Assembly (NCBI GenBank): GCA_963805315.1
Contig: CAWDTQ010000015.1
Span: 516,722 to 580,721, forward strand
Reading direction: 5' to 3'
DNA length: 64,000 nucleotides
DNA from: an uncultured delta proteobacterium
Lineage (GTDB): Bacteria; Desulfobacterota; Binatia; Binatales; Binataceae
A model generated the notes under the pieces. The model was not told where the DNA came from and made no database searches. It saw nothing but the letters and a program-made list of their open reading frames with translations. The position numbers and the translations under genes are program-made. Shown here piece after piece: positions 6,745 to 53,183 of this stretch. Every line of letters begins with the position of its first letter. The first letter of the stretch is position 1.

Positions 6745-6756
6745 AGGAGTAGTCAG

Positions 6757-7522: not shown

Positions 7523-7535
7523 CTTGGAGGCGAAC

Positions 7536-9450: not shown

Positions 9451-9452
9451 CC

Positions 9453-15449: not shown

Positions 15450-15450
15450 A

Positions 15451-15962: not shown

Positions 15963-17429
15963 TCGAAGTCCTCAAATCAGTCGGGCCGATGGCTCGACGC
16001 TCGTCTGCAACTCGGCCAGACGATCGCCGACGTCGCCGCGCATCCGGTGCCGCGCAGTTCCGCGAGCTGGTGGTACATGTTCGGCAGCGCGACGCTCGTC
16101 GTTTTCATTTTGCAAGTAGTCACTGGCATCTGCCTCGCGACTGTCTATACGCCGGCCGCCGATCGCGCCTGGGACAGCCTGATCTATTTGAATTACCAAC
16201 AGCCGCTCGGATGGTATCTGCGCGCGCTGCACGGCTGGGGCTCCAACTTCATGGTCGCCCTGATGTTCGTGCACCTGATCCAGGTGTTTCTGTTCGGCGC
16301 GTACAAGTATCCGCGCGAACTCACCTGGGTCGCAGGATGCGTACTGCTTTTGTGCACGCTCGGCATGGCGTTCACCGGCCAGGTGCTGCGCTTCGATCAG
16401 AACGCATACTGGGGTCTGGGCATCGGCGCGTCGATCGCCGGACGCACTCCGATCATCGGCTTCAAGGTCGTCGATCTGATTCTCGGCGGACCAATCATCG
16501 CCGGCGAGACCTTGTCGCGATTCTTCGCGCTGCACGTATTCGTGATTCCGGCTCTGCTGATCGCCTTCGTCGGCCTGCATCTCTTCTTGGTATTGCGACT
16601 AGGCATTAACGAATGGCCGATGCCTGGTCGAATAGTCAGACGCAATAGCTACTTGCGATGAGTATAGTGAGTTAGTACACGCCGACGGCGAGCCGTTCAT
16701 GCCATTCGCGGCGCAAAAGGATCTCGTCTTCGCCGGACTGATTATCTTGAGCCTGCTCGTAGTCGCCGCCGTCGAAGGCCCGATCGGTCCCAACGGCCAG
16801 CCCGATCCGACGATCATCCAGACCGTTCCGCGCCCCGACTTCTTCTTCCTGTGGCTATTCTCGCTGTTCGCATTGTTGCCGCCATGGACCGAGACCTTCC
16901 TGATGCTCACCGGTCCGGTCGCCGTCATCGCGCTGCTCTTCGCGCTGCCCTTCATTTCGGGAACCGGCGAGAAGAGCTGGCGTCGACGACCCATCTCAGT
17001 CGTGATCGTTATTCTCGCCGTGACGATCGTCGGAACTCTCACCTGGCTCGGGACATTCTCGCCGTGGTCGCCAGTGATGGACGCGTGGAGCGCCGCACCG
17101 ACGCCCGTCGACTACGTCAAGGGCCGCACTCCGCTGGAACTTCAAGGCGCGTTGCTCGTGCAGAGCAAGCAGTGCCGCAACTGCCACTCGCTCGGCGGCG
17201 TAGGCGGGATGCGCGGTCCCGCGCTCGACGACACCGCGACGCGGCTCACGCGCGACCAGATCGTTCGCCAGATAATTCAAGGTGGCGGCAACATGCCGGC
17301 CTACGGCAAGAATCTCACGCCCGCGGAGGTCAACGCGCTCGTCGCGTTCCTCGCCACGATGCATCCGCGCGGGCGAGCCTCCCGCGCGCGATTCGGCGCG
17401 ACCCGCCGCTCACCGAGTCATCGCAGTGA
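15959..17429 (+). pseudogene. Cytochrome b (N- and C-terminal halves) fused to a C-terminal mono-haem cytochrome c domain, about 3 frameshifts as sequenced
   Basis: WWYMFGSATLVVFILQVVTGI…LHGWGSNFMVALMFVHL is cytochrome b. The apparent stop at 16659 is bypassed by removing one c at ~16656, which gives …YLDEYSELVHADGEPFMPFAAQKDLVF… The C-terminal domain carries CRNCH…GGGNMPAY. The predicted end TGA 17427-17429 overlaps the ctaG GTG (GTGA). Confidence 0.8.
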
Positions 17430-22484: not shown

Positions 22485-23717
22485 TCACGATTCATCCGAG
22501 GGTTTTACCGCGCGGAATTGAATCAAGAGCAGAATGTCGTAGATCGTTTTTAATGTACCCGCGCAAATCAGCGGCCATCCGAACGACGAATAATTCAGCA
22601 TCGCGCCCGCCGGCAACGGCGCCAGCGCGGATGCCAGGCTGCGCGGCACGTTGGTGACGGTTGCGGCTGCGGCGCGCTCCTCGGGCGGCACCACCGCCAT
22701 CACGTATGACTGGCGCGCGGGAACGTCCATCTGCGAGGTCGAAGAGCGCAGCAGCAGGAATGCCATCGTCAGCGCCGGCGTCGGCATCAATGCGGCGATG
22801 ATCAACATCGCGTTCGACGGCAGATGGGTGAATACCATCGTGTTGATCCGTCCGAACCGCGCCGCGAGCGCCGCCGAAATGAACTGTGAAAACGAGCCGA
22901 GGATTCCGGCCGCGAAGAAGAACGCACCCGCCGCCTGGACCGAGATGTTGAAGCGGCGAAAGAGCCACAGCGCCAGCAACGACTGGATTACGAATCCGCC
23001 GCCGAGCGAGTCCAGACTGAACAGCGCCGCCAGCCGGATCACGATCGTCCGCGACCTGGCCAGCGGCGCGGACTTGACCGGCTGGCGCTCGACTTCGATA
23101 TCCGGCGAAAGACGCAGATAAACCGCGAACGCGATTAGCGCGATAATCGAGTATGCGACGAAGCCCGACCGCAGCGCCGGCGCGAGCGCCCATCCATGCC
23201 GCGCCGCGAGGATCGCGGGTATTCCGCTGGCCAGCGCGCCAAATGCACCGGCCGTCGCGCCCGCAACATTATATAGCGCGAACATCGCGGTCAGATCGCG
23301 CGGCTCGGCGGCCTCCGCCAGCGCCGCCTGCTCGACGGGTAGAAACAGGCTGACGTCGCCGGCCGACGGGTTCAGCGTGCCGACGACGGCGACGACGAAC
23401 AGCGGCCAGAAGCTCGTTGTGGTGGCGAATCCAATTCCCGTTAACAGCATCAGCGCGCACGCCGCGAGCAGGACGCGTCGCCGCCCCAGCCGATCGGTGG
23501 CGAGACCCACCCACAGCGTCAGCGCCGCCGAGCCCAACAGTGTGCCGAACACGATTGCGCCGACCCGCAACGGACTGAATCCAATCGCCGTCAGGTAGCC
23601 CGGCAACAAAACGCTGACCGCACCGTCAGCCAGGCCGCGGAGCGCGCGCGTCGTCAGCAGCAGGCGCGCGTCGGTCGTAGCGCTCTGCGGGAACCATCGA
23701 TTGATCGGACTCAGCAA
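22485..23717 (-). CDS. MFS transporter
   Basis: 410 aa with about 12 hydrophobic helices and an MFS signature-like loop, TDRLGRRRVL. Confidence 0.85.
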   Translation of the reverse strand: MLSPINRWFPQSATTDARLLLTTRALRGLADGAVSVLLPGYLTAIGFSPLRVGAIVFGTLLGSAALTLWVGLATDRLGRRRVLLAACALMLLTGIGFATTTSFWPLFVVAVVGTLNPSAGDVSLFLPVEQAALAEAAEPRDLTAMFALYNVAGATAGAFGALASGIPAILAARHGWALAPALRSGFVAYSIIALIAFAVYLRLSPDIEVERQPVKSAPLARSRTIVIRLAALFSLDSLGGGFVIQSLLALWLFRRFNISVQAAGAFFFAAGILGSFSQFISAALAARFGRINTMVFTHLPSNAMLIIAALMPTPALTMAFLLLRSSTSQMDVPARQSYVMAVVPPEERAAAATVTNVPRSLASALAPLPAGAMLNYSSFGWPLICAGTLKTIYDILLLIQFRAVKPSDES

Positions 23718-23726
23718 TGAGGCAGG

Positions 23727-24239
23727 CTACCGAGATGCTCCTGCGGCGGCGTCCAGGCGCTTGCGAATTTCCGCGAGCATGTCCTCATCGATCCACGCGC
23801 CGTGACCATTCGGACAGGCCATCCCGGCCAATCCCGCCGAGCCCGGGGCGAGCGCGGCCTGGGCGGCCAGCTGGGAGCCGCAGTCAGGGCAATCGATCCT
23901 TTTGCGATGTTTGTGGTGCAGTTCTTCGACGAGATCGAAAACCTTTTCGCCCAGCGATACGGGGTGAATCGCAGCCGCATTTTCAAGGCGTACACGAAGC
24001 TGCTCGAGCGCTTCCCGATCGCCCCATGCGCCATGGCGGTTTGGACACGCCATTCCCCCGACGCCGACCGCTACCCGAGCATCGAGTTTCTGGCCGCATT
24101 GCGGACATGGGATCGCCTTGACGTACTTGCGCCGCAGCTTTTCCAAAATCTCCTCGTCGCGCTGATGAGCCCACTGATTTTCGCGGGCAGCCTCAGCCTG
24201 ATGGAGTTTGTCGCCAAGACGGTCTTTTTCGTCGCTCAT
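23727..24239 (-). CDS. Zinc-ribbon protein with two TFIIB-type (zf-TFIIB-like) repeats
   Basis: MSDEKDRLG… carries two CPxCG…ACPNxHGAW(I/G)D modules. Track ORF 23727-24611 extends upstream across the att repeat, and that extension is rejected. Confidence 0.65.
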   Translation of the reverse strand: MSDEKDRLGDKLHQAEAARENQWAHQRDEEILEKLRRKYVKAIPCPQCGQKLDARVAVGVGGMACPNRHGAWGDREALEQLRVRLENAAAIHPVSLGEKVFDLVEELHHKHRKRIDCPDCGSQLAAQAALAPGSAGLAGMACPNGHGAWIDEDMLAEIRKRLDAAAGASR

Positions 24240-24291
24240 AATTTCACCGCAAATTTTTGCCCGGTGCTGAACGTGTTTCGTGGATTCCCTG

Positions 24292-24334
24292 GTGAGCCGG
24301 CCGGGACTTGAACCCGGGACCCTGTGATTAAAAG
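24292..24334. repeat. att repeat (distal), a duplicated 3' half of tRNA-Lys
   Basis: gtgagccggccgggacttgaacccgggaccctgtgattaaaag is identical 43/43 to 38312-38354. It corresponds to the tRNA from the anticodon loop to one nt past the discriminator. Confidence 0.85.
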
Positions 24335-24444
24335 AAATATTTCGCGTTTGCGCAAGATTGCGCTCGGTTGCTTTCAGTCTGATTTTCATAGGCTTTTCGC
24401 TCTCGCGTTGCTCTCGGTATCGCTCGTTTGCTGAGCGTCTCGCG

Positions 24445-24470
24445 TCAAAAGCGTTACAATCTTTTACAGT
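24445..24470. repeat. Candidate integrase arm-type site (left)
   Basis: tcaaaagcgttacaatcttttacagt matches 38219-38244 at 22/26 positions in the same orientation. It contains two TTACA(A/G) half-sites and lies ~110 bp inside the island from the att core. Confidence 0.35.
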
Positions 24471-24635
24471 CGCGGGCGCAACCCGCGCTCGTCGTATGCT
24501 CTGAATATGCGCTGATTGCGCCGCGTTCTGCATCAATTTGAGTGAAGCACCCCGCGCTCCGCGGTCTTCAACGTGTGTTGATGAATCCCTTTCGCCACTT
24601 GAGTTCGGCATCGCTCGACTCTTATCATTTGATTC

Positions 24636-26102
24636 GTGAGTAGCTCGACAGAAATTCTGCTGGAAACCATTCAGAAAGGCGTAGAAGCACTAGAAGCGCG
24701 GCTTTTCGCCAAGCTGGAAGTCAACCACGACCTGAAGCGCACGCTGGTGAGTTTTCAAGCGAACAAGCAGGAACCAGTATATCGCTGGTTTAAATACAAA
24801 GAGGGATTTTCCGCAACACTACTAAATTACATTCTGGACGCCCTGAAGATATCGCGGGTAGAGTGCTCGATCCCTTTGCTGGCGTGGGCACGACGCTGTT
24901 CGTCGCCAGTCAGCGAGGTCTGGACGCCACCGGAATCGAATTGTTGCCTATTGGCTGCGAAGTGGTCGAGATTCGAAAAGAGATAATGAACGGCGGCCGC
25001 GCGCGCGCCGAGAAGTTGGTGAAACGGTGGCGCGAAGAGCGACCATGGAAAAACGCGACGGCCCGTCAGGCAAAACCGTTTCCGCATCTGAAAATCACGG
25101 GCGGGGCTTTCCCACCAGAGACAGAGGATAGTCTAGGACGTTATCTTGCAGCGGTCGAAGATGAGCGAAGCAAGAGTCACGGCGGTTGCTTCGACTAGCC
25201 GCCCACGCCGTGCTTGAGCAGGTCCGCGATACTCAAAAGATGGGCAGTACCTCCGTTGGGATTATCGTTCTGGGCGACTGCAGGGGGCTCGGCCCTTCAA
25301 CAAGGGTCACATCAAGCCTTTCGATGATGCAATCGAGGAAAAGCTGAGGGAGATGTATGCCGACCCAGGCGCGCGGAACGGGCTCTTCGACCTGCCTCCG
25401 CAACCAGAAGAGTTGGGCGATATCGAAGTGCTCAGGGGTTCGTGCCTCAAGATTTTGCCGACTCTCGATAGCGCTTCTTTTGATTGCCTGATTACCTCGC
25501 CGCCTTATTGCAACCGTTACGACTACACCCGCACTTACGCGCTCGAACTGGCGTTGCTCGGCGTAGACGAGGAAGGATTACGGTCGCTTCGCCAGGAAAT
25601 GATGTCCTGCACGGTGGAAAATCGAGACAAGCTCGGTTTGGAAGCGATGTTTTCGCCGGGGATTTACGCGCCCGCTGTAGCCGCATTCCAAGAGCAGCAG
25701 GAAATACAGACCATCGTGCGCTATCTCGAACAGCGCCGGGACAACAAGCAAATCAACAATTCCGGTATTCCCCGTATGGTTCGAAATTACTTCTTCGAAA
25801 TGTCGCTGATTCTCTTCGAGTGTGCGCGCGTGTTAAGACCTGGCGCGCCGTTCGTCATGGTGAATGATAACGTCCGGTACAAAGGTGCAAACATTCCCGT
25901 AGACCTGATTCTGTCGGAAATCGCTAGCAAAGCTGGCCTGGAGCTCGAAAAAATTTGGGTGTTGCCGAACGGGAAAGGAAACAGTAGCCAGCAGATGGGC
26001 GAGCATGGTCGAGAGGAGATGAGAAAGTGCGTCTACATCTGGCGCCGTTCTAGAGCCCGACAAGCCAAGCAGCGAGGTCGGCAAGCTGCTCTGGTACAGT
26101 GA
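24636..26102 (+). pseudogene. DNA methyltransferase (N6-A/N4-C type, SPPY motif), about 2 frameshifts as sequenced
   Basis: AdoMet motif I (VLDPFAGVGTTLFVASQRGLDATGIE) is in ORF 24863-25198. Catalytic motif IV ([13 protein letters not shown]) is in ORF 25353-26102. The linker …[15 protein letters not shown]… is readable upstream of 25353 in the same frame, and the N-terminus is in ORF 24636-24986. Confidence 0.75.
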
Positions 26103-26946
26103 GATTCGCAGCATACGTCAATTTCTGGCTCTGAAGTTGCTCGAAAATCTCTTTCGCCATAGCCGGCGCTATCGCAGCACCTACAAGAAACAGCGGCGGC
26201 GGAATATGGTCTTTGAAAGAGACTCGGATTCTGTCAAGCGCGCTGTTGGCGGTTTTCCAACGCTCGTCTGCGGCGGCGGGATCAATCCCTCCCTTAAGCT
26301 CGCCGCACGCTAAGTATTGATTAGGATCTGCAAAGAGTTCTGAATCTGCGAGTTCAGCCCCCAATGAATCGTCGAGCAGGATAACATCGACATTCTTTCC
26401 GATGATTTTAGGTGTTCTGTCGAACAGCAGTCGTCTTTTTCTCCACCGAATCCGCTGAACCTTGTCGTTGTCTCCCCGGAGAGGTTCAGGTTCGACCCCC
26501 ATCGCTTGAGCGCGCCCAATAACGCGCGTGTCAACTGAATGCTGGCGTGCGCACCAGTCAAGTTGCCCATGCTGCCGCCCAAAGCAGCCCCCATGGTCAA
26601 CAGATAGCGGTACACAATTTCTTCGCGGAAGTCGCTCCCGGCTGAAGCTGAAGAAAATCTTCTCGAAGACTTCGGAGACTGCCGCATCCAATTCAGCATC
26701 AGAGAGGTGGCCTCGCGCTTTTGCGGAGAAACCGGCGGCTGCAATCAGGTCACTGCGAAATTCCTTCAATTTGAGGAGTGACTCGACATTGGCAACCTTA
26801 TGTAGCGCGGCGAGCAAAAGTTTGGCTTGACCAACAACCGGCGCCGCCTTCTGCGTTTTCGCCTGCGCTTGCGATAGGAATCCCTCACAAACGGCGCGAT
26901 GCGATGTAACCAAATCCGAGGGTTTCTGAATATGCGGTGGCAGCAT
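26050..26946 (-). pseudogene. Putative type II restriction endonuclease (PD-(D/E)xK-like), internal frameshifts as sequenced
   Basis: It is convergent with the methyltransferase. A candidate catalytic region is …VDVILLDD…ACGELKGGIDPAAADERWKTA…. The middle third reads better in the frame of ORF 26310-26744 (REEIVYRYLLTMGAALGGSMGNLTG). The family assignment (XamI-like) is only a guess. Confidence 0.5.
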
Positions 26947-27061
26947 GCGGTGTGATTCTAGGCCTCGGCGAGATGACGTGCCATCTCACTTCGGCCAGGG
27001 TCAGAGAAAAGAAAGAAGTCGCCGAACTGCTATCGGCGCGTACGGTGGGCTCAGCTACTCT

Positions 27062-27640
27062 TTAGGCGATTGACGTGCCCTTCTTCTTCGGGGATTGCTT
27101 GATAGGGACAACCTTCCCAGTGCCCGCCATCTTCGCTTTCTTCCGTTCCTCGAAGCTCACTTCCTTGGATTCGCGCTGGACCTCTTGGTAAGCGGTGAGC
27201 CACTTTGAGTCTGTAATTTTTTTTGCGATGCGCAGTTGCTCGACCACCGTCGTCGGGTGCACGAGCAGGACGTAAGCGGACTTTTGTCCACCAATGCCAA
27301 CGACCTTGATGAAGCCTTGGTCCTCCAATACCTGCATATGTTCCCGCCAAGTTCGAAGAGCACGATTACTATGGTGTCCGGCGGCGTATGCGTGCTGTCC
27401 CTCGTGTTTCATTTCGATGACGCCTTGACCCCAATGTCGTGATAGCAATTCGAGATACGTCTTCGACGGCTGATGCCCGCCGCTGACGGCCTTCGAGTCC
27501 AGGAGGTCCAGTATCAGAGGCAACGTGCGGGAGGCTGAGAACCAACCGGACTTCTCCTCCGGCCCAAGCCAGGCTTCTGCGTTGGGCCAGTAATTTTTGC
27601 GAAGCTGTTGTCGACGCTGATTTATGCCGAATTTCTTCAT
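27062..27640 (-). CDS. Hypothetical protein (possible winged-helix DNA-binding protein)
   Basis: MKKFGINQRRQQLRKNYWP… is 192 aa with a basic C-terminal tail. The upstream 166 aa of track ORF 27062-28138 are not protein-like. Confidence 0.45.
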   Translation of the reverse strand: MKKFGINQRRQQLRKNYWPNAEAWLGPEEKSGWFSASRTLPLILDLLDSKAVSGGHQPSKTYLELLSRHWGQGVIEMKHEGQHAYAAGHHSNRALRTWREHMQVLEDQGFIKVVGIGGQKSAYVLLVHPTTVVEQLRIAKKITDSKWLTAYQEVQRESKEVSFEERKKAKMAGTGKVVPIKQSPKKKGTSIA

Positions 27641-28162
27641 TTCTAAAAGCCTCGAATCGGTAGGGCGACGAGCGCGCGTTCCGCCGTTCCTACCTCGCTG
27701 GCCGCCCACAACCCCATGTCGCGTTCGGTTTAGCGATAGTACGATTATCGGTGCCGTTCGGCCTCTAATCAACGTTTTCGGTGGCTCCTGGCGGGCAATT
27801 TGTTCCGCAAGCAATCGCGGTCGTTGCGGCGAGTGCCCGCGTCCACTCTCCGCGAAGGAGCGCCAAAACGCGGCTGACGAATGTGAACCGGCGCTACAAC
27901 GCCCGTTCAGAATGCACAGACCTCCGAAAGCTACGCGATTGAGGGGAAGTTTTTTCAGAAATTCGGCAGGCGGGGTGTCCCGGTGTTCTATGTGTGAAGG
28001 GTATCCCGTTTTCCCGCTTTCCATGTGTCGAGTTATCCCTTTGGGTCGCGAATCGAAATCGCTGCCGTCGTCTCGTTTCGTCGCCACCACGTTCCGGCAG
28101 AAGTGAAACCCACAGGGGAAGGTTTGCTTGAAATGCATCGTCAGTCAACGCTCAGACGAGCC

Positions 28163-29835
28163 TCAGGCGGCGCGCTCGCGTCTTTGCAGCGATTCGAGCG
28201 CTTGTGGGGAACGACGCCCTACAGGGCGGCTCAGCAGCGGGAGATGTCTATATCTCGCCGCCCTGGTCGCATGCCTCGAATTTCTCCCTGCTCGATATTC
28301 TGCGCGAGAATCTTCGATAACGGCGCTGTGCTGACGCTCTCGACGCGCACGCCCGAAATCGGGAATCTCTCTTTGCTCGCGCAAGCGCGCTTCGCCGCGA
28401 GCGCGCCACGCAGCGACAGGCGAAGCGAACGAAAACCCGAAGAGCGGACGAATCGTCGTCTTGCTGCGACCCTCTTGCTTCGCAGCGCCGAGCGCGGCTT
28501 GCGCAAGCGCGACCACCACGTCGATTTTGTGGCTGGCTTTTTCCTTGGTGATGCGCCAGCCGCGACCGCTCTCGATTCCGACCGCACGCGATATTGCGAG
28601 CCGCAGCGCAGGGTCGGGATAGACGGTGAGATTGCGACCCTGAATTAAATCGTAAAGGTTGCTCGACGCTTCTGTCAGATTGCCGACCGATTGGGGAAAT
28701 TCCACCATCGGCACGCGCGCCTTCTGCAAGCGCTGAGCCACGGCGACAAGCTGATACGGGTCGTAAAACACTTGCCGAACGTAAAACGAGCGGCACAGGT
28801 CAAGCAGCGTTCTCTCGACTGTCTGCTCGAAGTCGAGCGGGTTGTCGGGCGATGGCTGAAAGATGGAATGCTTGACGACGCGAACGCGCTTCGTACTTCG
28901 GTCATAGGCGGGCGGCAACAATCGCGGTGGAGTCGTGCTTGTACGACGCATCCACGCCGACCCATACCGACTAACCTCGGGCTGCACGACGATGGGTCGT
29001 ATCTCGGACATCGACGCACGCGCCCACTTCTCCCAATTCGATGAACGATAGACTCGGTAGTGACCCATCGATTCTCAATCATTCGCAAGAACTGATTCGT
29101 GCGCAGCGATGCGCGCATCTGCTCGCGCCACTCTTCGGTTTGCCACGGCGCGCGCAGTTCGTTTGTCCAATAGCAAAGCAATCCGTCGTCTGTCGCGAGC
29201 AAGTCAGTGCCGATTTTCCTTCCGCCTTGCCCTCGTTTGTAGAGGTCTTCGAGCAGTTCGGATTCATTCTCGAATCCGGCATACGTCACAGTGAGTCTCG
29301 CGCTCACTTTGCGCGTCGGTGGCGGGACCATTTCGTCCCACAGTCTGCGCGACCGCTCTGAGGTAAATGCCCACAATTCATCGAACACCGAGATGGTAGG
29401 ATTCGCCCCCGCTGCGCCCGCGTAGTCATTCGCGACAGCAGTAATCGAAGCCCCAGTCGAAGTGAAATCAATTCGATTGACGCCTACACGCGCTCCGGCG
29501 CGCGAGCAGAGGCGATGCCCGCACGATGCGAGCAGTCGCTTGGTACACTCTGCCCGTGCTCTGGTCGAGGTCGTTCGCGAGACAGTAGCCCTCAGCATAC
29601 GGGCCGCCGAGCGCGACGATGACGTACAAGAGCGCCATCGCGGCGAAACCTGTCTTGCCTGACTTCTCGGGCCTGCTGAACAGAAAGTTCAGGGTATGGC
29701 AGTCTCCCCATCGCTCGTCAGAGTCAGCGCGCGACGCAGAAATTCGATTTCCTCGGCGTAGAGAGCGAACGGCGCGCCAGTCTCAGGGTTTATTAAGACG
29801 CCCTCGATGGAAGCAATTGGCGTGAGCTTCGCCAT
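28163..29835 (-). pseudogene. Phage terminase large subunit (Terminase_1-like), multiply frameshifted
   Basis: The N-terminal ATPase part (…LLFS.P.KSGKTGFAAMALLYVIVALGG…) and the nuclease part (YDPYQLVAVAQRLQKARVPMVEFPQSVGNLTEASSNLYDLI…KASHKIDVVVALAQA) are spread over at least 3 frames. ATG at 29835 (MAKLTPIASIEG…). Confidence 0.7.
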
Positions 29836-29934
29836 TCAGCGAGACGCGCTGTTATTTCTTTCTGCTTCGTCACCCTACTTGCTTGCCGCCGTCTGCCCTG
29901 TCTGCCGGTCAGCCAGCAAACCCGCAGCAACTTG

Positions 29935-30649
29935 TTAAACCGATTTTGTCGCACGGCCTGACGCGATTTTCGAGCGACGAATAATCAAGTCGTACTCTGC
30001 GAGCAGAGCACTGACTTTCCTGGCGTCGCTAGGCACTGAGGCAATCAGCAGATTCAGTTCAGCTTTCACCTCACGCGATAGCGCGCGCGGGTCTGCGCTC
30101 GACAAGTCTGTGCGCGTGTTCATCTCGTCTGCGATACAACCCGCCGTTGCCGAGTCAGAAGTCTGCAACCGCGCTGCGCGCTGCTTCGACAAGCGCAGAC
30201 GCAGAGAGACGAGAGTAGTTGAGCCGTGACTGCCAGACGCGTTGAAGCGTCGCCGTCGCGAGTGCCGGCGAATTGCGCGCGCTGCAAGACACTTTGCCAT
30301 GGCGGGCAGCGTTCGTGCTTGCCTGTGCAAGAAGACCCGCGTTCTCAGTCAACTTCGCGAGCAGCGCATCCAGCTCTTCGTTCGCGTGCGCTTCGGCATT
30401 TTTTTTCAGTTGCTTGACAAGTTCGGGGTGCAAAGTCGGGCCACTGCGCGCTTTGTCGATTGCCTTGTCCCGTTTCGCGAGCGCGTCTGTGATTTGGGAT
30501 TCGACTTTGCGCGCGAGTTTAACGTTCGTCTCGATGACTGCTACGTCGAGCAGCTTCGTCACTGGCTGCGAGATGCGAGTAGTCGCGCCAATCTTTTCGC
30601 CGTCTTGTATGCGCTCGACGCCTGCCTTGATTTTGTCTGTGCTGGCCAT
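29935..30649 (-). pseudogene. Hypothetical island protein (helical/coiled-coil-like), frameshifted
   Basis: MASTDKIKAGVERIQDGEK…LDALLAKLTENAGLLAQ… is in one frame. A C-terminal part (…DPRALSREVKAELNLLIASVPSDARKVSALLAEYDLII…) is in the frame of ORF 29935-30330. Confidence 0.4.
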
Positions 30650-30669
30650 GGTTTTCTTTTCTCCCTTGG

Positions 30670-30972
30670 TTAAAGTTCGTCTTCTTCTGAGTCGAGCGGT
30701 TTTTCGAGTCTGTAAAATCTGCCTCGTTTGAAGTGCAGCACGACAGGGCCGTGAATCGCGGCAATTGCGCACAAGTGTGCGACAGCCTCGCGAAAGCCAG
30801 GCTGCTTGCGCGCTTCGCGCATGAGGTCTTCTGCGACGATTTCGTCTGCGTGGCGGTCGTACTCTTCTGAGCAAGCTGCGCAGCAGACTTCATCGCTCGC
30901 GACTTTCGTGCGGCAGATTGCGCACTTGCCCTTACGTCGCGGAGGGTGTTTGTACTCAGGTGTTGTCTTCAC
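30670..30972 (-). CDS. Small Cys-rich (zinc-ribbon-like) hypothetical protein
   Basis: 100 aa containing CAICRTKV…CCAAC. It lies in the minus-strand island operon. Confidence 0.4.
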   Translation of the reverse strand: MKTTPEYKHPPRRKGKCAICRTKVASDEVCCAACSEEYDRHADEIVAEDLMREARKQPGFREAVAHLCAIAAIHGPVVLHFKRGRFYRLEKPLDSEEDEL

Positions 30973-31289
30973 TTCGCGTTCTTGCTCCTACATGTCTTGG
31001 TTAGGTCGTTTCGGGGGCTACCCAAACGCATCGCGCAAATGGGCAGCCCCCTTGGCAGGTGCCCATCCGAGAGAAGGAGGAAGCCCGGATAGTTGTCGCG
31101 GTCAGACGACGTGCACCTCATGTTAATCGTTTTCATCTTCGATGTAGCCGCCGCTTCATCCGTTGTTGTTGATGTTGGCGACGTTGACGAAACTTCTTGT
31201 AGGGTCTTCACGCTCAAATCCCCATGCTCTTGTAGGAGTAACCAGTCCCTCTGCGCCATTTCTCGACGTTGCGAAAGCATAAGTCGAAC

Positions 31290-33153
31290 TCAGTGCCCGT
31301 TGTTGTGCTGCTTCGGGCCGCCTGACGGGAATCTTGCGGTCTCGGCGTATTTGCCCAGAAGTCTCCCAATCTCCACTGCTGGAGTGCTCTGGTCGCCGTC
31401 GTTCGCGTGCCTTGCGTTGTAGCGCGCTGCAATCGACTTGGAACTTTCTAAAAGTTGCACGGCGTTGGCTCGCCTGCGAAATGAGAACATCGCATCATAA
31501 GAAACGATGCACTCGTGACGAAGTTCGCGACTTGGGAGCGCGCGATTCGTTCAGCTTTTGCTTCGCGTCAGACATCGGCGCGATAGCGTACGGCTCGAAG
31601 CTCGCGCAATCGACTTCGTTGGCCAGGTACCACGGAATCGCGTTGCGCCCGCGCTCGCTCATGTACATTGCACCGAAAGCTTTGCTCAGCGGCGTCGATT
31701 CCAGTCATGACGTGAATGACGCCGAACCGACGGTCGTCCGCTTCTAGGGAAACAGGCACAATGTCATTCGAGACGAATAAATAGTTTGCAATTCCTCGAG
31801 CGTGTAGGTCGGCTGACTCTTTGATTGACCGTCAATTGCGCTTGCGTGATGAGGCCCTTGATGTAGTTCATCTCAGCGCGCTTGTGCGTCGAAGTAATTT
31901 CATCTGCGAGAATGAACTGTCGATGCGGCAGCCAGTCGTTGAACTGCGATTTCAAGTCCGCTTGTTTTATCTCGCTGAAATTCGCGCTCCCATACACTTC
32001 GCGCATTGCGTAGCCGAGCATCGTCTTGCCTGCGCTCGGCGCGCCGTGAATGAGCAGGGCATTGCTGAGCTTCACGCCCGGATTTTCTCAATCGATACGC
32101 GAGCCACTGCTCCACCCACGTGCGCATTTCTTTTTCAGCGTCGGCGCAAAAGTGGTCCAGCACTTCGCGAAACAGTTTTGCGTCAGCAGCGTTTCTTGCG
32201 CGGCGCTGCTGCGCCCCAGCCCTTCCAGAGATTTGACGAACCGTCGCCGAAGTCCGCGCGACGCGCCCTGAGCGCGCGCGGCTGATACACGAGCTTCGTA
32301 GTGCGCGAGTGCATGCGCCACTTGAGTCATCCGCGCTGCTGCTTCGACTTCTTTGACTTGGCGCTGATTGACGGATAAATCGGACGGGTGGCGCTTCTTG
32401 CAGTCGAAAGTCCGAGCGAAGAGCGTGTTGTCTTCAAAGCGCAGTATTGTGCTTGGCTGTTTGAGCACCGAATAGGCGTCGTTGAGCGCCCACAGTTCTT
32501 GATTCAACTCGAACGGCTTCTTTTCGAACTCCTTGAAATTGTCAACGCCGTTGACGAGATAATCGTCGAGCCCGATTTTCCGATCGACTTCTCGGCGGTA
32601 GCTCGATTTGAAAGACGCGCGCTCCCTCTTTAGTCAGTTCGCGCGCTAGGGCATGAAGCGCGCCTTGAAGAGACGCACGACCCGCGACCTCGGCATCGTA
32701 CACGATTACAACTTCGCGATTTTCCGACTTGATATTTTTGAGGTCGGGAATCAGATTGACTTGCGCCTTTCTCGACTTCCAGTTCCAGACGCCGCCGACA
32801 CCGGCGCACGTCAGACCCATGAGACAAGCCTTGGCAGACTTTTTTTCTCGCTCCTCTGTCATCCAGATTTCGAGCGTCGGGTCGTCGGCGACTTGCTGCC
32901 ATGTGAGGCTCTTCAACAGCGGCGGCATGTAAAGACGCGGGATTGAATCTTCTGGCTGCCAGTAACGAAAGCCCTTAAGCGCTTTGTTGTCCGTTGCTGT
33001 ATCGCCCTGATCAAGCTGCAAGCGACGCAGACGAAAGTAGAGCGGGTCTATCGAACCGTCGAGATTGAAGTAAGGTAGCTTGTAGCCTGGGTCGAGGATT
33101 GCCTCTTTCGACAACGCGAACATCGAGTCGGCAACGAGCGGTTGCACGCGCAT
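31290..33153 (-). pseudogene. Primase-helicase (DUF3854/Toprim-like N-domain + D5/P4-type P-loop NTPase), multiply frameshifted
   Basis: The N-terminal part is in ORF 32542-33153 (…IWMTEEREKKSAKACLMGLTCAGVGGVWNW…VVIVYDAEV…). The P-loop part is in ORF 31764-32075 (LLIHGAPSAGKTMLG…FILADEI). The C-terminal …SLEADDRRFGVIHV… is in ORF 31568-31759. Confidence 0.7.
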
Positions 33154-33255
33154 GCGAAGCGCCTCCGCACGTTTGATGCCTGAGCGTCACTAAGTCTGCA
33201 AACATCGCACGAAGCAACGGCGAATTGCTTTCGCCCGCCATCTTACTTCTTGCCG

Positions 33256-33507
33256 TTACGCAACGAGGCGCTCTGGCTCACGCTCAGGCAGACCCCGCAA
33301 GCCGGCCGTCTTCAAGAATTCGCGCAGCGAGCGCTCGGTGTAGCGCACTGCCACGCCCACCTTATAAAACGCTGGAGCCTTACCGAAGGCTCTTCGCGCT
33401 ATCAGCCCTGTAGTGGAAATGTTGTAGCCATTAGCGCGCAGGAACGCCGCCGCTCCATCTTGTATGGTCGTTGCCATCGTCGTAGTCTTCGCGAAATGGG
33501 TTTGCAT
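33256..33507 (-). CDS. Small DNA-binding (excisionase/AlpA-type HTH-like) protein
   Basis: It is 83 aa (or 73 aa from MATTIQDG…), with …AAAFLRANGYNISTTGLIARRAFGKAPAFYKVGVAVRYTERSLREFL…. It is the first gene transcribed leftwards from the AT-rich iteron region. Confidence 0.4.
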   Translation of the reverse strand: MQTHFAKTTTMATTIQDGAAAFLRANGYNISTTGLIARRAFGKAPAFYKVGVAVRYTERSLREFLKTAGLRGLPEREPERLVA

Positions 33508-33756
33508 TCACGCCTACATTGACTAGTTCTATATCCTTCATCCATCCGTTCTTGACCTCATAATGTTCTTTCATCTCACACTAAGTCTAACTGACAGACC
33601 TAGGGAGTGCGGTCAATGACACATTGAGAGACTAATCAACACGCCCTTAGCCTAGGATGTGCATAACTATCTAGTTTCGCTACGCGGAGTCCTACGAGGC
33701 ACTTATAGGTACGTCGCCATGTCTGTGCTTTTATCTTACCGACGCTCTGGTCATGT

Positions 33757-33933
33757 GTCAGATAAAGTCAAGTCAGATGCGTTTTGAACTACCTATGGAA
33801 ATACCAACACACTATTCTCTCTACCCCCATACCTTCTCACGATATACTTTAATTTATCTGACTATCTGACTATCTGACTTTTATGTAATGGAACAAAGCA
33901 CTTTCCATCAGTCAGATAAAAACCGCATCTGAC
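33757..33933. repeat. Iteron/operator cluster (GTCAGAT[A/G] 8-mers in both orientations) in an AT-rich non-coding region
   Basis: Forward copies start at 33757, 33772 and 33911. Reverse copies are a perfect 3x tandem tatctgac at 33855-33878 plus one at 33926-33933. The surrounding 33520-33960 is visibly AT-rich compared with the rest of the window. Confidence 0.6.
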
Positions 33934-34286
33934 TTGCTGACTTTGCTCGAAATGCCATAACGCAACAGTTGCACGACGCCCGCACTGCTGCTCTGCACGC
34001 TCAATCCTATGCGTTGAAATTGCCGCTCGTCGCTCTCGACAGCATGCGCAGAGCGTGAATCGGCGCGCTTCGTTGGCAAAGAACTTGTGATTTTGAATCT
34101 TACGCTCCGCTCGAAAGCTCACCGAGCGTGCGACTTGCCCATCGCTGTCACAGATTTGTTACACGGCCAGAATAAGTGATGCGTGAGCGTTCAGACTCGA
34201 CGCGTCGCGCGTCCTGCTGAACGCTTCGATTCGTGCATCGACTCAGCATCTAGCTCCATCACTCCGGAATCGATAAGACTCGACGT

Positions 34287-34769
34287 ATGAAAGTAACGCC
34301 AAAACCAAAGTCGAAAACAACGAGCGAGATTTCACATCGCTCGCAGTCATCCCGCGCGAAGCGGGCAAGCCAGGCCGCCCAAAGCGACCACCGCGACCGC
34401 TAAGCACGAAGCGGTCAGCATCGCAGTGAAACGGCACATGCGCGACGTGAAGCTCGCTGCCCCGTGGCTTGAGGTCGCTGACGCGCCACTCGTGCGTCGC
34501 TTCGCGGAGTGCAAGTCATAATCGGGAGACTATATTTCGAGATACATCTGAACGGCGCATTCGACAACAAGCGTCAACCTCGATTCGTGCTCGACACGTA
34601 CCGTCGAATGGTACTGACTCAAGCAGCAATTGCCCGCGAGCTTGGTCTGTCGCCGCTCGCTCGAAAGCAACTGTCTCTCGCCACGCAGACGGGACAACCT
34701 CGCAGCGGCCATGGCGAAGCGCGTCAGCAGCGACAGCGACAAGGAGCCCGGGCTAAGGGCGTCGGGTAG
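34287..34769 (+). pseudogene. Putative phage terminase small subunit (P27-like), frameshifted
   Basis: The segments …GKPGRPKRPPRPL…, …APWLEVADAPLVRRFAECKS… and …FVLDTYRRMVLTQAAIARELGLSPLARKQL… follow the P27 TerS pattern but lie in 3 frames. Confidence 0.45.
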
Positions 34770-34975
34770 TCATTTCGATGCTCGGCCGCCCACTGGGCGG
34801 CCAAGCATTTCTGCCTGTTTAAGCGGTCGCCGCCACGGACATTAGCTAGCTCGCGTCCCAAATGGCTAGAGACGCCCTACCGCCATCCAGCGAAAGGCCC
34901 GAATTTACTAGACAATGCAGAATTGCCGATGTGGGGTCGATGTTTTTATGTGAAAGCATTTCGGACATGAGCTAG

Positions 34976-35645
34976 CTAATGTCCGCGCGCGACGCTTGAC
35001 TCTCGTGCGGCTCTCTCTTCGAGCTTTTGCTTCGCATCCTCGCGCCGCCAACGACGCACCTCGTGCACGTCTACGTCGTATTTTTTCGCCGCGTCTTTGT
35101 TGAGCTGAGTTTTGCGCTTGAAGTCATTTTGGATGGTAGGGTCTTCGCGCAGCCGCAGTCCGATGTACCCTAGACAGTCCTTCTTCTTGCTTTTCTCCCG
35201 TCGAACCTTCGCGGAATTCAGCTCCGCCCTCCATCGGCGTTCGAAGTCTCGGCCGTCGCGTTTCGCCTGATTAAGCCACTCAGGCATTTCAAATTCTTCT
35301 GCGAGCTTCAGATGCAGGTCCTCCAGCTCGTGGTAGAGCAGCACCGCATCGAAACGCTTAGCCGCGATGGCCTTGCGGACTTGCGCAACACGGTCGAGCG
35401 CTTCCTGGGCAGAGTTCGTCGGTCACTGGTCGCGGCGGATCTTGTTTCCGCAGCCCGCCGAACCAACGCTTCAGAAAGGCGAGCCGGTCGGTCAGGTTCT
35501 TGAGATGAGCCTTTTTGCTGACAGACGTTGCGCGGCACACCGCCTCTCCTAATCTAGTGCGAGCAGCGCAGATAATCCCTACTACACTGGGTATGCTCGG
35601 CCCGCCCGGTGGGCAGTCGAGCAAAGCCGTAGCCTGTGAAATCAC
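34976..35645 (-). pseudogene. Hypothetical island protein, frameshifted
   Basis: The C-terminal 122 aa are ORF 34976-35344 (…LLYHELEDLHLKLAEEFEMPEWLNQAKRDG…). An upstream part (…KKAHLKNLTDRLAFLKRWFGG…) is in another frame. Confidence 0.35.
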
Positions 35646-35909
35646 CGTGACCGTAGCTACGATTCTAATTAACTAGCGATTGACCCGACCGTCTTAGTTC
35701 TGTTCTTATAAGTTTGTAATGAAGCTATCGACACAGCGCCGCAGCGTCTACCCAGACAATAGCCCGCCACGAGCGGGCTACTCGTCCGGAGGAGCTCGCT
35801 TGCGTAAGAACAAGCCGAACGATTAGAGTGTGGCGATTTGCTGACGACTGACGACGCGGTCCGCAGAGCGCAGACGTTCACAACGGGGTGACGCGATACG
35901 ACGGCGGGC

Positions 35910-36065
35910 ATGTTCAGCATGCGCCGCGTCGTGTGGGTTAGAACCAATTTTCGTCCAGTACGGGCGTCTGTCAGATACCGAAAGGCCGACATCGAAGAAT
36001 GGTGCAAGAAGCGCATCGCAGAGCGCGGACGGTCGGCGGCGCGCAAGAGCGCGGGGCGCGAGTAG
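35910..36065 (+). CDS. Possible AlpA-like small regulator remnant
   Basis: 51-aa ORF: MFSMRRVVWVRTNFRPVRASVRYRKADIEEWCKKRI…. The '…VR(Y/W)…D(I/V)E.W' C-terminus resembles AlpA/excisionase proteins. The HTH part is not recoverable in frame. Confidence 0.25.
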   Translation: MFSMRRVVWVRTNFRPVRASVRYRKADIEEWCKKRIAERGRSAARKSAGRE

Positions 36066-36067
36066 CG

Positions 36068-36502
36068 ATGTCAGCGACGAATCGAGCGGCCGATCACGAC
36101 AGTTTTCAAGACGGCGCTCAGAATCAGATTGCTCACTTCGATGTTTCGAGTCTTACACGCGCTGAATGCGCTGCACTGCTCGCGCAAACGAAATCTCTTG
36201 AAGGCCGCCTGCTCGCGCGCTTGCTGACGAGCGATGAAAGCACAGCGGGTGAAACAAACAGCGATGGCGACCGATTGCTGGTCGAGCAGGCGGCGCAACT
36301 CCTCTCGGTCACACGAAGCTGGCTTTATCACCACGCGAAGCGCCTCGGGCTCGCGGTCGAGCTCGGCGACGGCACGCTTCGGTTTTCCTTTCTCGCGTGT
36401 CAACGATACATCGCGCATTCGGCTGTCGCGGTTCCTCGCACGCGCGGAGCACGTTATCGCTCCAGGATTCGGTTTGAGACTCGACAAGAAGCCATTTTAT
36501 AA
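36068..36502 (+). CDS. HTH DNA-binding protein (excisionase-like), immediately upstream of the integrase
   Basis: From the ATG at 36068: MSATNRAAD…LLVEQAAQLLSVTRSWLYHHAKRLGLAVELGDGTLRFS…. The position and HTH pattern suggest Xis. Confidence 0.5.
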   Translation: MSATNRAADHDSFQDGAQNQIAHFDVSSLTRAECAALLAQTKSLEGRLLARLLTSDESTAGETNSDGDRLLVEQAAQLLSVTRSWLYHHAKRLGLAVELGDGTLRFSFLACQRYIAHSAVAVPRTRGARYRSRIRFETRQEAIL

Positions 36503-36543
36503 TGCCTCGTCGCTAATCGACAGTTCGCATAGGAGGACAGAGA

Positions 36544-37703
36544 ATGAGCAAGCAGCTTTGGGGAACTGGCAACGTTTACAAACGCGGGCGCGTTTGGTGG
36601 TTCTACTACTGTGCTCGCGGCAAAACCTACCACAAGTCCGCCAAGACGCCGAAGCGCGCAGAAGCAGTCAAAGCGCTCAAGAACGCCGTTGGCGAATCGT
36701 CGAACAGTCGCGTCGTCATCGCCCCTGTCGCAGAGCGCGTCACGCTCAAGCAGATGCTCGACGCGCTGCGCGACGATTACGTCCGCAAAGGCAACCGCAG
36801 CAAATTCGTCGCGCGCTCGCACTACTTGCTCGCCCATATCGGCGAGGATGCACGCGCAGTCAATCTGACACGCGACGCCGATTTCAGCACTACGTCGCTA
36901 TGCGTCGCGCGACGCTCATCAAGCGCGCCACCGGCAACAAAATCATCGTCAAGGGAAAACGCGTCGTAGAGCGCGTCGAGCAGCCGCCGTCGAACGGGAC
37001 AATCAACTTTGAACTCGCCCTTCTCAGGCGCGCGTTCAACATTCAAGTCGAAGCTCGCAAACTGTCGCGCGACCACGTTCCAGTGATGCCGATGCTGGAA
37101 AAATCGAAACCGCGCCAGGGGTTCCTCGACCCTGCCGAATTTGATGCGCTCGTCGTCAAGCTCCCTGAGCATCTGCGCGATGCAGTTCGCTTTCTCTACG
37201 CAAGCGGCTGGCGCAAGAACGAAGCTATGACCCTTGAATGGCGCGACGTGGATTTCCAAAACGGCGTGATTCGTCTTCGCGCCGAGCACTCGAAGAACAA
37301 GCAGACGCGCGTGCTCCCGCTCGCTGACGAAGTGCTCGAAATCATCAAGCGCGCTCGCTCGACGCGCTCGCTCGCTTGCCCGTTCGTATTTCAGCACGAC
37401 GGCGCGAAGCTCCCCACCTTCCGCAAGGTATGGGCGAATGCCTGCAAGGCGGCGGGTCTTGGCCGTCTGGTCATTCACGACCTGCGCCGCTCAGCCGTTC
37501 GCAATCTCGTTCGTGCAGGCGTCAGCGAGAGCGTGGCGATGGGTTTCACGGGGCACAAGACGCGCAGCATTTTCGACCGATACGACATCCTCGACAAGCG
37601 GGACCTCGAAGCTGCGTCAGCGAAGCTCGCGAGCTATGTGCGCGAGCGCGCTCAGGAAGAACCGAAGGTGGCCGCCCAGCTTCCGCAGCGCAAGAGCGCG
37701 TAA
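36544..37703 (+). pseudogene. Tyrosine recombinase/integrase, one frameshift near 36885 as sequenced
   Basis: The N-terminus (MSKQLWGTGNVYKRGRVWWFYY…) is ORF 36544-36969. The catalytic domain lies in the frame of ORF 36234-37703: …FLYASGWRKNEAMTLEWRDV…, HDLRRSAVRNLVRAGV…GHKTRSIFDRYDI (R…HxxR…Y). Confidence 0.85.
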
Positions 37704-37728
37704 GTAACAAGGCAGTCCCGTAGCCTCG

Positions 37729-38091
37729 CTATTCTTCCTGATGGCAAACGGCTTCTATGTTGTTGCCGTCGGGATCCTTCACGAAGCCGCCGTAGTAGTT
37801 GGCGGAATATTGGGGACGGAGACCGGGCTTGCCGTTGTCCTTGCCGCCGGCGGGCAGAGCGGCATCGTAGAACGCCTTCACGGCAGCGCGGTTCTTGGCC
37901 ACGAATGCAACATGGACAGGTCCGGTCGGTTCGCCCTTGGCCAAACACAAGGCGGGCGCGTCCTTGGGGCCAAAGACCACTATTCCGTCCGCGTCGTACT
38001 GCACGCTGAAGCCAAGCGGCGCCAGCGCGGCGCTGTAGAAGCGCTTGCTCGAGTTGAGGTCCTTCACCTTAAGCATGATGTGATCAAACAT
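37729..38091 (-). CDS. VOC/glyoxalase family protein
   Basis: MFDHIMLKVKDLNSSKRFYSAALAPLGF…VHVAFVAKN…GGFVKDPDGNNIEAV is 120 aa from the ATG at 38091. Confidence 0.8.
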   Translation of the reverse strand: MFDHIMLKVKDLNSSKRFYSAALAPLGFSVQYDADGIVVFGPKDAPALCLAKGEPTGPVHVAFVAKNRAAVKAFYDAALPAGGKDNGKPGLRPQYSANYYGGFVKDPDGNNIEAVCHQEE

Positions 38092-38218
38092 GACTCTCTC
38101 CTTCTCTGACTTTCGTTTTCTCGACCCGGACGGCTCTCGTGCCGCGCCGCCGGCGCCTAACGACACGCAAGAGCGCGCGCAGTCGTGTGAACGCTGCGCG
38201 CGCTTTTTTCGTCCGCCC

Positions 38219-38244
38219 TCAAAAGTTTTACAAACTGTTACAGT
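38219..38244. repeat. Candidate integrase arm-type site (right)
   Basis: tcaaaagttttacaaactgttacagt lies ~70 bp inside the island from the att core and matches 24445-24470 at 22/26 positions. Confidence 0.35.
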
Positions 38245-38311
38245 TTTCGCATCCTGCCAATCGCGTGGTCATTTGAAGCGCTACAAAGCATTGAATCCAA
38301 AAGGGTTTTGA

Positions 38312-38354
38312 GTGAGCCGGCCGGGACTTGAACCCGGGACCCTGTGATTAAAAG
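38312..38354. repeat. att repeat (tRNA-proximal)
   Basis: Identical 43/43 to 24292-24334. It overlaps the 3' half of tRNA-Lys. Confidence 0.85.
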
Positions 38355-38385
38355 TCACATGCTCTACCACCTGAGCTACCGGCTC
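38313..38385 (-). tRNA. tRNA-Lys (anticodon UUU)
   Basis: Hand-folded cloverleaf: GAGCCGG-TA-GCTC-AGGTGGTA-GAGC-A-TGTGA-CTTTTAA-TCACA-GGGTC-CCGGG-TTCAAGT-CCCGG-CCGGCTC-A. It is 73 nt with a perfect acceptor stem, and CCA is not encoded. Confidence 0.9.
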
Positions 38386-52663: not shown

Positions 52664-52804
52664 TCACGGCATTGCTGATAAGAAATCGAACGTCAACCGC
52701 TTCGTCAGACCTACCATGCTGCCCCTCGCCGGAGGAGTGATGAACTTCGGCACCATCAAGTACCAGCCCACAAGGGCGATCGCGGCAGCGTGGCGGGGCT
52801 TCAT
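52664..52804 (-). CDS. Small secreted hypothetical protein (short paralogue)
   Basis: MKPRHAAAIALVGWYLMVP… shares its N-terminus with the upstream neighbour, and the remainder diverges. It may be a decayed copy. Confidence 0.3.
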   Translation of the reverse strand: MKPRHAAAIALVGWYLMVPKFITPPARGSMVGLTKRLTFDFLSAMP

Positions 52805-52805
52805 T

Positions 52806-53093: not shown

Positions 53094-53183
53094 GCGCGGG
53101 ACCGACAGATGGCGGACTCCCTACGCGGGCGTTGCTCGCTTCAGTCAGGATGACACAAAAGGGATCAGAAGAAGCGGATCGGG

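Follow-up and report, generated by a model that had tools for sequence, protein, structure and literature searches.

The phage satellites that most resemble the element described here are distinguished by their gene sets. In SatelliteFinder, a phage-inducible chromosomal island (PICI) is recognised by an integrase, a regulator, a primase-replicase (pri-rep), terS and capsid-modifying genes, whereas capsid-forming PICIs (cfPICIs) add terL, a capsid protein, a protease, the portal-associated adaptor and connector, and HNH, with terL being a marker that separates the two; known satellites that are capsid-less lack terL (PMC10085698). We analysed a 64,000-nucleotide stretch of contig CAWDTQ010000015.1 (hereafter, the window, whose coordinates are used throughout) from Candidatus Binatus, an uncultured soil bacterium, that contains a 14.0-kb island at a tRNA-Lys(UUU) gene. 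Judging from gene content and comparison with other genomes, the island is a copy of a conserved family of capsid-less, tRNA-integrating elements that occur in Candidatus Binatus and its uncultured soil-dwelling relatives. A satellite lifestyle is the mechanism best supported by the anatomy of the island and the comparative data, and appears fairly probable.

The island resembles PICIs, including the Staphylococcus aureus pathogenicity islands (SaPIs), in its size class of 10-15 kb, a tyrosine integrase at one end, an AlpA/helix-turn-helix (HTH) protein in a divergent control region, a primase-replicase with an adjacent origin, a gene with weak similarity to small terminases, accessory or defence cargo, and the lack of recognised virion and lysis genes. 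Unlike PICIs, which are without terL (PMC10085698), it encodes a full-length large terminase subunit (TerL); furthermore, no capsid-morphogenesis (cpm/rpp-like) gene was recognised in it, its gene for a small terminase (TerS)-like protein belongs to the integrase-ward operon, and its host is an uncultured Binatota lineage. Because of the conserved, full terL, the island is not a PICI as defined. The cfPICIs, with a median size of ~14 kb, share with the island their own terL and terS-like genes, integrase, regulator and primase (PMC10085698, bioRxiv 10.1101/2022.09.08.507074), with the qualification that, in the island, the TerL assignment is firm and the TerS-like assignment weak. However, cfPICIs depend on further genes, for the major capsid protein, portal, prohead protease, head-tail adaptor and connector and, in most cases, HNH. 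No Pfam or PHROG match to these was found in the island frames scanned or in the gene tables of the relatives, and lacking capsid genes, the island falls outside this class as well.

P4-like satellites have an integrase beside a tRNA-type attachment site (att), an AlpA-like regulator, a fused primase-helicase, a size of ~11-14 kb and a defence hotspot (PMC8628076), all of which have counterparts in the island. In contrast to the island, P4 has no terminase genes and uses the terminase and cos site of its helper; the island primase combines DUF3854 and DUF5906 rather than showing the P4 alpha architecture; and the capsid-size genes psu, delta and sid, as well as epsilon and alpha, had no matches in the island (Pfam and PHROG; four of the six whole frames) or in its relatives, which places the island outside the P4 group. 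Marine VEIMEs (virion-encapsidated integrative mobile elements) and PICMIs (phage-inducible chromosomal minimalist islands), environmental satellite candidates recognised by comparative metagenomics, encode an integrase, AlpA, a primase/helicase and, sometimes, terS and a restriction-modification (R-M) system, but have a small terminase at most, the large subunit presumably coming from the helper (PMC9618062, PMC10803314). VEIMEs were recovered from particles, whereas encapsidation of the island is a prediction, as is its induction by a helper in the manner of PICIs. An earlier, sequence-only reading of the locus, which described its architecture as PICI/P4-type, was apt with respect to layout, size, control region and cargo, all of which are PICI-like, but the island meets the definition of neither class. 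Within the literature searched, no paper dealt with Binatota satellites or prophage-like islands. To our knowledge, known satellites either borrow the large terminase of a helper (P4, PICI, PICMI, VEIME and the PICI-like elements, PLE) or also make their own capsids (cfPICI).

The boundaries of the island are defined by two 43-nt repeats that lie 14,020 bp apart and are still perfect, as an exact repeat search established in agreement with the sequence-only reading. The right-hand copy is the 3' half of the sole tRNA gene that ARAGORN detects in the window, and the 3' end of this tRNA-Lys points into the island. The GC content is 0.51-0.61 in the island and mostly 0.57-0.68 in the flanks. Both flanks align at 77-90% nucleotide identity to nine Binatus genomes, and the MFS transporter gene to the left of the island (22488-23717) is 90-92% identical at the amino acid level to genes of Candidatus Binatus metagenome-assembled genomes; 23717-38306 has no counterpart in the nine relatives at the DNA or translated level. 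The distance from tRNA-Lys to the MFS gene in these relatives is 2.0 to 9.5 kb, or >10 kb. Because these distances differ and nothing matches the island there, the tRNA-Lys-MFS interval is, by this comparison, a variable region. The 43-mer is present in a single copy in each relative and a search for a second copy found none, so that their tRNA-Lys-MFS intervals are not bounded by the same repeat. The hallmarks of a generic tRNA-integrated genomic island, namely, a tyrosine integrase, a duplicated tRNA segment and presence/absence variation, are all observed. None of the nine Binatus relatives showed the strict empty site for which a search had been suggested, in which the left flank would run straight into the tRNA; in L003, L005, L006 and L008 (L-numbers denote loci or contigs in other assemblies compared with the window), only about the first 20 nt after the tRNA resemble the left flank of the window, with modest similarity.

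The att copies and the backbone of the island, from the distal to the proximal end, are as follows.

24292-24334, no strand: distal att copy, a 43-bp direct repeat, 43/43 exact to 38312-38354, equal to the 3' half of tRNA-Lys
24335-24501, plus: conserved element terminus with a small open reading frame (ORF; 24382-24501), 88% nucleotide identity to the last 183 bp of L102
28137-28236, minus: conserved non-coding block directly 3' of terL, ~100 nt after the terL stop, candidate cis site (cos/pac or similar)
28237-29873, minus: TerL, PF20441 nuclease/ATPase, at least 5 frame changes
29890-30649, minus: 246-aa family-specific all-alpha protein directly upstream of terL, one frameshift in the window
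30670-30972, minus: small Cys-rich (Zn-ribbon-like) protein of 100 aa, 74% identity to the L082 100-aa protein
31133-33241, minus: primase-helicase (DUF3854 Toprim-like and DUF5906/VapE-like P-loop; PF12965, PF19263), ~20 frame-breaking indels
33256-33507, minus: AlpA-like HTH_17 protein, encoded at the start of the replication/packaging operon, tblastn identity of 54-63% to L082 102-aa and L101 112-aa proteins
33732-33933, no strand: iteron/operator cluster with the core ATCTGAC, 8 TATCTGAC copies in ~200 bp
34287-34746, plus: P27-type TerS-like protein, frameshifted, first gene of the integrase-ward operon
35835-36062, plus: small conserved ORF (83-97 aa in relatives), 42-65% identity to L082, L099, L101 and L102 proteins
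35999-36502, plus: Xis, an excisionase-like HTH_17 protein that seems to be intact, sharing 47-74% identity with proteins of 107-170 aa in relatives
36544-37703, plus: tyrosine integrase, ~385-392 aa, PF00589 E=1.6e-22, one frame change near 36870
38312-38385, minus: tRNA-Lys(UUU), ARAGORN and Rfam tRNA (72 bits), the 3' 43 nt of which (38312-38354) are the proximal att copy

Two observations concern the immediate surroundings of the att site. Abutting the distal att copy, the window encodes a 170-aa protein with two zinc-ribbon motifs (23727-24239, minus strand); since this gene has no counterpart in the nine Binatus relatives, the left flank itself may be older acquired DNA. In L009 (Ca. Binatus soli UBA7539; 2750-2765), the 12 nt after tRNA-Lys (TCAAATTCCCTT) are identical to the integrase-proximal end of L102 and similar to the window island end, and no related integrase follows; this stretch may be a scar of a related element.

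The family is delineated by relatives in other assemblies. The closest context, L082, aligns with the window at 81-84% nucleotide identity over the xis region, the control region, and the primase through the end of terL, and supplies intact versions of the 704-aa primase-helicase, the 100-aa Cys-rich protein and the 250-aa protein upstream of terL. This 250-aa protein has only 23 homologues in a collection of 5.8 billion proteins and can therefore be used as a family marker, via which six further contexts, L098-L103, were retrieved. Their common gene order starts with the integrase (385-397 aa), the HTH_17 excisionase-like gene, small ORFs including the TerS-like one, and the divergent control region, and continues with the HTH protein, a primase module (the fused DUF3854 type in some members, PrimPol together with a D5_N helicase in others), a 65-92-aa protein, a 237-246-aa protein, TerL (535-544 aa) and variable cargo. 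Similarity between members ends at one place, past the conserved block 3' of terL. Most genes of the relatives are intact, and the backbone genes, the terL pieces included, show dN/dS of 0.17-0.26. The capsid-less backbone shared by L082 and L098-L103 under this constraint bears out the proposal of a satellite-like gene set as opposed to a normal or decayed prophage. In L103 (a 14.9-kb contig), an RVT_1 reverse-transcriptase gene (853-1785) occupies the expected place of the integrase, and the D5_N helicase is split.

Measured boundaries in four relatives give sizes of 13.3-14.7 kb, with tRNA-derived direct repeats in three. In L098, L099 and L101, 40-45-nt repeats of the 5' half of tRNA-Arg(TCG) delimit 13.3, 14.3 and 14.7 kb, respectively. 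The L102 contig, 13,845 bp long, contains nothing but the element, and each of its ends lies 30 nt into the same 43-nt tRNA-Lys repeat as in the window, presumably where a k=31 assembly graph broke at the repeat; ~180 bp at each L102 terminus are conserved with the window. The terminal small ORF of the window (24382-24501) is 47% identical to a 55-aa terminal ORF of L098. L100 adjoins tRNA-Arg(ACG), and no flanking repeat was found there. Thus, the family uses different tRNA targets and different halves of the tRNA gene, the tRNA-Lys(UUU) 3' half in the window and L102 and the tRNA-Arg(TCG) 5' half in L098, L099 and L101, with integrases that are 56-70% identical between the two groups. Outside these genomes, megablast of the whole island against phage records yielded no match, viral contigs scanned with the TerL fragment and with the L082 primase gave only one distant locus in either case, and a metagenome scan with the L082 primase found only ~30%-identity relatives on short contigs.

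The integration and replication genes conform, for the most part, to the sequence-only reading. The integrase is present and, read in two frames, 93-95% identical to the intact 385-aa integrase of L102, but it is not next to the tRNA as had been stated because a glyoxalase gene (listed below with the cargo) intervenes; this gene is missing from L102, where the integrase abuts the att end. The two Xis/AlpA-type HTH genes that had been proposed are HTH_17 proteins by virtue of the PF12728 matches of their relatives: the L082 Xis homologue matches PF12728 with E=5e-6 and the excisionase family phrog_66 with E=1e-8, and the 102-aa L082 and 112-aa L101 homologues of the AlpA-like protein match PF12728 weakly. 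The predicted Toprim (DUF3854-like) and P-loop primase-helicase was confirmed by the PF12965 and PF19263 matches; the frame-corrected protein shows 84% amino acid identity to the intact 704-aa L082 protein (dN/dS 0.21), which itself matches the PHROG DNA primase with E=1.7e-30. The anticipated AT-rich iteron region with diverging genes is also there: 33400-34000, with a GC content of 0.40-0.47, encloses the repeat cluster, which consists of five exact copies of TATCTGAC and three with one mismatch; across the full 64 kb, there are only six exact copies. Seven occurrences of the 7-nt core ATCTGAC fall within this cluster, and among the other members, L082 alone, whose primase is of the same type, has a cluster of it; members with other primases carry other repeats. 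This distribution ties the iterons to the replication module.

The packaging genes are the distinguishing feature of the family. The P27-like terS and the terL that had been noted fared differently. TerL was detected firmly: tblastn with the intact 535-544-aa TerL of L098-L102 gives 56-78% identity over frames -1, -2 and -3, with some stretches identical to L099, and the TerL fragment has >1,500 homologues, the full-length ones being 510-545 aa. In intact members, PKKSGKT (Walker A), VFDELW (Walker B) and VGVDAS (nuclease) are conserved; at the first residue of the Walker A stretch, the window has Arg where six relatives have G, A or C. The TerS-like protein, by contrast, is encoded in the integrase-ward operon and not beside terL, and its match is weak and under the gathering score. 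Its relatives are 103-146-aa proteins of L098, L100 and L101 (65-93% identity), the L101 version matching Terminase_4 with E=0.003 (18 bits, against a gathering score of 24.7) and phrog_83 terS with E=0.004; a profile search against PDB sequences returned nothing meaningful. It is a probable, not an established, small terminase. The 246-aa gene, translationally coupled to terL in the relatives, is always immediately upstream of it, and the model of its product is all helical (AF2, pLDDT 77); speculatively, it may be a partner of the terminase or modify capsid assembly. The Cys-rich protein is 51-58% identical to the 65-92-aa proteins of L099-L102 and matches no family. NCBIfam was uninformative for TerL, the primase and the unknown proteins. 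Two further loci, L083 (4956-18528) and L097 (385-10903), are small integrase-bearing elements with TerL 66-68% identical to that of the island and a 613-649-aa PhageMin_Tail (tape-measure-like) protein, with no recognised capsid or portal; they may represent a second kind of capsid-less terminase element.

The non-coding block directly 3' of terL is kept in all eight members (8/8), with local identity of 86-94%, compared with ~71% for the terL DNA. An RNA reading of the block was rejected, there being no covariation and no Rfam family, and no terminator-like site was found in it. The most economical reading is a cis-acting DNA site such as cos or pac. In L100, the block (12346-12420) recurs as a partial copy ~1 kb further along (13355-13393), the starts of the 61-nt repeat being 939 bp apart; because these two copies bracket one cargo gene, the block might also be a recombination point for cargo exchange.

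Beyond the backbone, the island carries the following genes.

24636-26102, plus: type II DNA methyltransferase, split over frames, matched by PADLOC MTase_II with E=9e-91, but only over positions 219-480 of the 481-position profile
26050-26985, minus: BsobI-family type II restriction endonuclease, PF09194 E=1.8e-53, PADLOC REase_II E=5e-59
27062-27640, minus: intact 192-aa ORF, cargo, open frame
34976-35344, minus: 122-aa ORF, open frame with a coding-like GC pattern, no family match, not in relatives
37729-38094, minus: glyoxalase/VOC-family protein, intact, 120-121 aa, cargo, PF00903 E=1.9e-10, between the integrase gene and the tRNA

The R-M module that had been noticed is, accordingly, a type II pair supported by Pfam, PADLOC and tblastn. 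The methyltransferase is 38-42% identical to annotated DNA methyltransferases in tblastn and retains an SPPY motif, and the middle part of the BsobI-family endonuclease (profile positions 99-150) lies in a different frame. The 192-aa ORF has no significant match in Pfam, PHROGs, NCBIfam or PADLOC and is not present in relatives. In the same slot after terL, where the proteins that differ between members are located, L098 carries a methyltransferase and a weak REase_II match, L100 HNH_2 and a DNA methylase, L101, L102 and L103 large methyltransferase-containing proteins, and L099 the candidate defence system PDC-M48; the slot appears to be a defence-gene hotspot. Far outside the island, window 52748-53096 shows, in translation, 46-61% identity over 28-39 aa to a 294-aa cargo protein of L101.

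The life cycle suggested by this gene set would run as follows. The element would rest quietly in the chromosome until infection by, or induction of, a helper tailed phage, upon which Int and Xis would excise it, and the primase-helicase would start replication of the resulting circle in the iteron region. The terminase of the element, TerL together with the P27-like TerS and/or the 246-aa partner, would then cut a cis site, for which the block 3' of terL is the candidate, and package the ~14-kb genome into helper-made procapsids, so that the element would spread as a satellite, with the R-M or defence cargo benefiting the host. The more specific proposal, about which we are more tentative, is that these elements constitute an undescribed class of phage satellites in Binatota, intermediate between PICIs and cfPICIs, with a complete terminase and cis site, no capsid genes, a motor of their own that loads ~14 kb into helper procapsids, and an exchangeable anti-phage cassette.

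Several points weigh against this interpretation. As known capsid-less satellites lack terL, a satellite-encoded TerL acting on foreign procapsids would be unprecedented and would need portal compatibility. The Terminase_4 profile is matched by the TerS-like proteins of four of five members, in all cases under the gathering score, and Foldseek found no match to the 246-aa protein below E=0.1 in PDB or BFVD. The Pfam search on which the absence of virion genes rests covered the larger ORFs and four whole frames with stops masked, that is, all but frames +0 and +1. Helper dependence, packaging and the circular form are deduced from the gene complement.

One alternative, which we consider unlikely, is that of an integrative island that is not packaged, in which the terminase-like genes interfere with phage packaging or process the island's own replication products, and transfer occurs otherwise or not at all. 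Defence systems fill the cargo slot in every member examined, and the TerL clade is also found in plasmid-like and other small contexts, namely, L095, with RPA and resolvase, and the two loci with PhageMin_Tail. On the other hand, TerL keeps its ATPase and nuclease motifs and is always accompanied by the upstream partner gene and the conserved non-coding block, as in a working packaging module, and the tight size range of 13.3-14.7 kb suits a packaging limit.

A separate question is whether the window copy is dead. The sequence-only reading considered the island a possible dead element given its frameshifts; these are real in the sequence as given, but death is unsupported because the host cytochrome b and ctaG genes are broken likewise and the backbone dN/dS is ~0.2. 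An alignment of the window with L082 contains 52 gaps over 5.2 kb; 31 of these are single bases, mostly outside homopolymers, and 22 represent extra window bases. The same pattern extends into host DNA: at 15271-17369, window-specific +1 insertions relative to two relatives are regionally clustered, cytochrome b (15905-17376), 94-96% identical to an intact 499-aa orthologue in L004, is read in three frames, and a further split lies in ctaG, near 17369. In host and island alike, the indels are insertion-biased and mostly outside homopolymers. Such indels resemble neither natural slippage nor the tendency of bacterial pseudogenes towards deletions. Genes are split in L082, L094 and L097, which have long-read-style contig names, and intact in L098, L099, L101 and L102; the intact relatives are on MEGAHIT, JGI or Logan contigs, the technology being assigned by us from the contig names. 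Because the same single-base insertions break host genes, because pseudogenes of the cytochrome b/ctaG type would be surprising in a free-living aerobe, and because the relatives with short-read-style names are intact, most of the frameshifts are probably assembly errors rather than decay. For sdhA, sdhB and malic enzyme (6154-10162), which are present as partial ORFs only, frameshifts are suspected rather than shown.

The competing account of the frames, that the window copy is genuinely dead, with the frameshifts and TGG-to-TGA changes being real mutations while the family functions elsewhere, is one to which we assign a low probability. The 2.1-kb primase holds ~20 frame-breaking indels and terL at least 5, neither R-M gene has an unbroken frame, one or two TGG-to-TGA changes occur, including a clean nonsense change at 31292, and the Walker A stretch of TerL begins with the Arg mentioned above. 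Furthermore, the indel density in the island exceeds that in most host DNA (~10 per kb in the primase, compared with ~3 per kb in the worst host stretch), which tells against the assembly-error explanation; the excess might stem from lower depth or from a mixture of variants, the element being strain-variable. Given the clean TGG-to-TGA change and this density, some real decay of the window copy is possible. Against a dead copy stand the window-specific +1 insertions that also split host cytochrome b and ctaG, with the partial sdhA, sdhB and malic enzyme ORFs suggesting the same, as well as the insertion-biased, mostly non-homopolymer indels in host and island, the frame-corrected proteins that are 84-95% identical to intact relatives, the still perfect 43-bp repeats, and the tracking of split genes with long-read-style and of intact genes with short-read-style contig names (the technology, again, by name). 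More generally, dense frameshifts in strain-variable islands from metagenomes call for a check of host genes on the same contig before pseudogenisation is invoked.

A degraded prophage, that is, a temperate phage from which the head, tail and lysis modules were deleted and which now decays through frameshifts, is very unlikely. It would account for the phage-type integrase, xis, primase, terS-like and terL genes in phage-like order, for the many broken frames, and for the R-M module occupying the place after terL where portal and capsid genes would stand. However, the relatives, from independent samples, are all without structural genes and lose similarity at one place; elements in which both att repeats, or contig ends within the repeat, are seen measure 13.3-14.7 kb; genes are intact in most relatives; backbone dN/dS is ~0.2; and essential host genes are broken by the same type of frameshift. 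The portal, capsid, tail and lysis modules of a temperate tailed prophage were found neither in the island frames scanned nor in the relatives, intact-frame ones included. As the sequence-only reading had stated, no portal, capsid, protease, tail or lysis family is matched in the island (Pfam on the larger ORFs and the four frames), where the only Pfam matches are the integrase, DUF3854/DUF5906, TerL, BsobI and glyoxalase, and portal, capsid and tail families have no match in the gene tables of L082 and L098-L103. The whole-frame scans added little over the ORF scans because broken genes fall below the HMMER filters. Elsewhere in the window, a 1,000-aa ORF (58282-61284) with no Pfam match has a GC pattern atypical of the genome (GC1 0.54, GC2 0.55, GC3 0.64).

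The least plausible alternative, a very small autonomous virus with capsid genes too divergent to recognise, could draw on the conserved genes with no assigned function (the 246-aa, 65-100-aa Zn, 83-97-aa and 55-aa ORFs) but founders on the fact that the only one of adequate size, the 246-aa protein, is predicted to be all alpha-helical, a fold incompatible with an HK97-fold capsid or portal, that the other conserved unknowns are at most 100 aa, that larger unknown proteins are not conserved between members, and that no tail or lysis functions were found.

If the satellite interpretation is correct, a conserved terL that evolves under purifying selection and is accompanied by no capsid gene would represent a third satellite strategy. 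It would then have to be asked how a foreign terminase docks on the helper portal. The family would also extend phage satellites to a soil phylum that has neither cultured members nor described phages.

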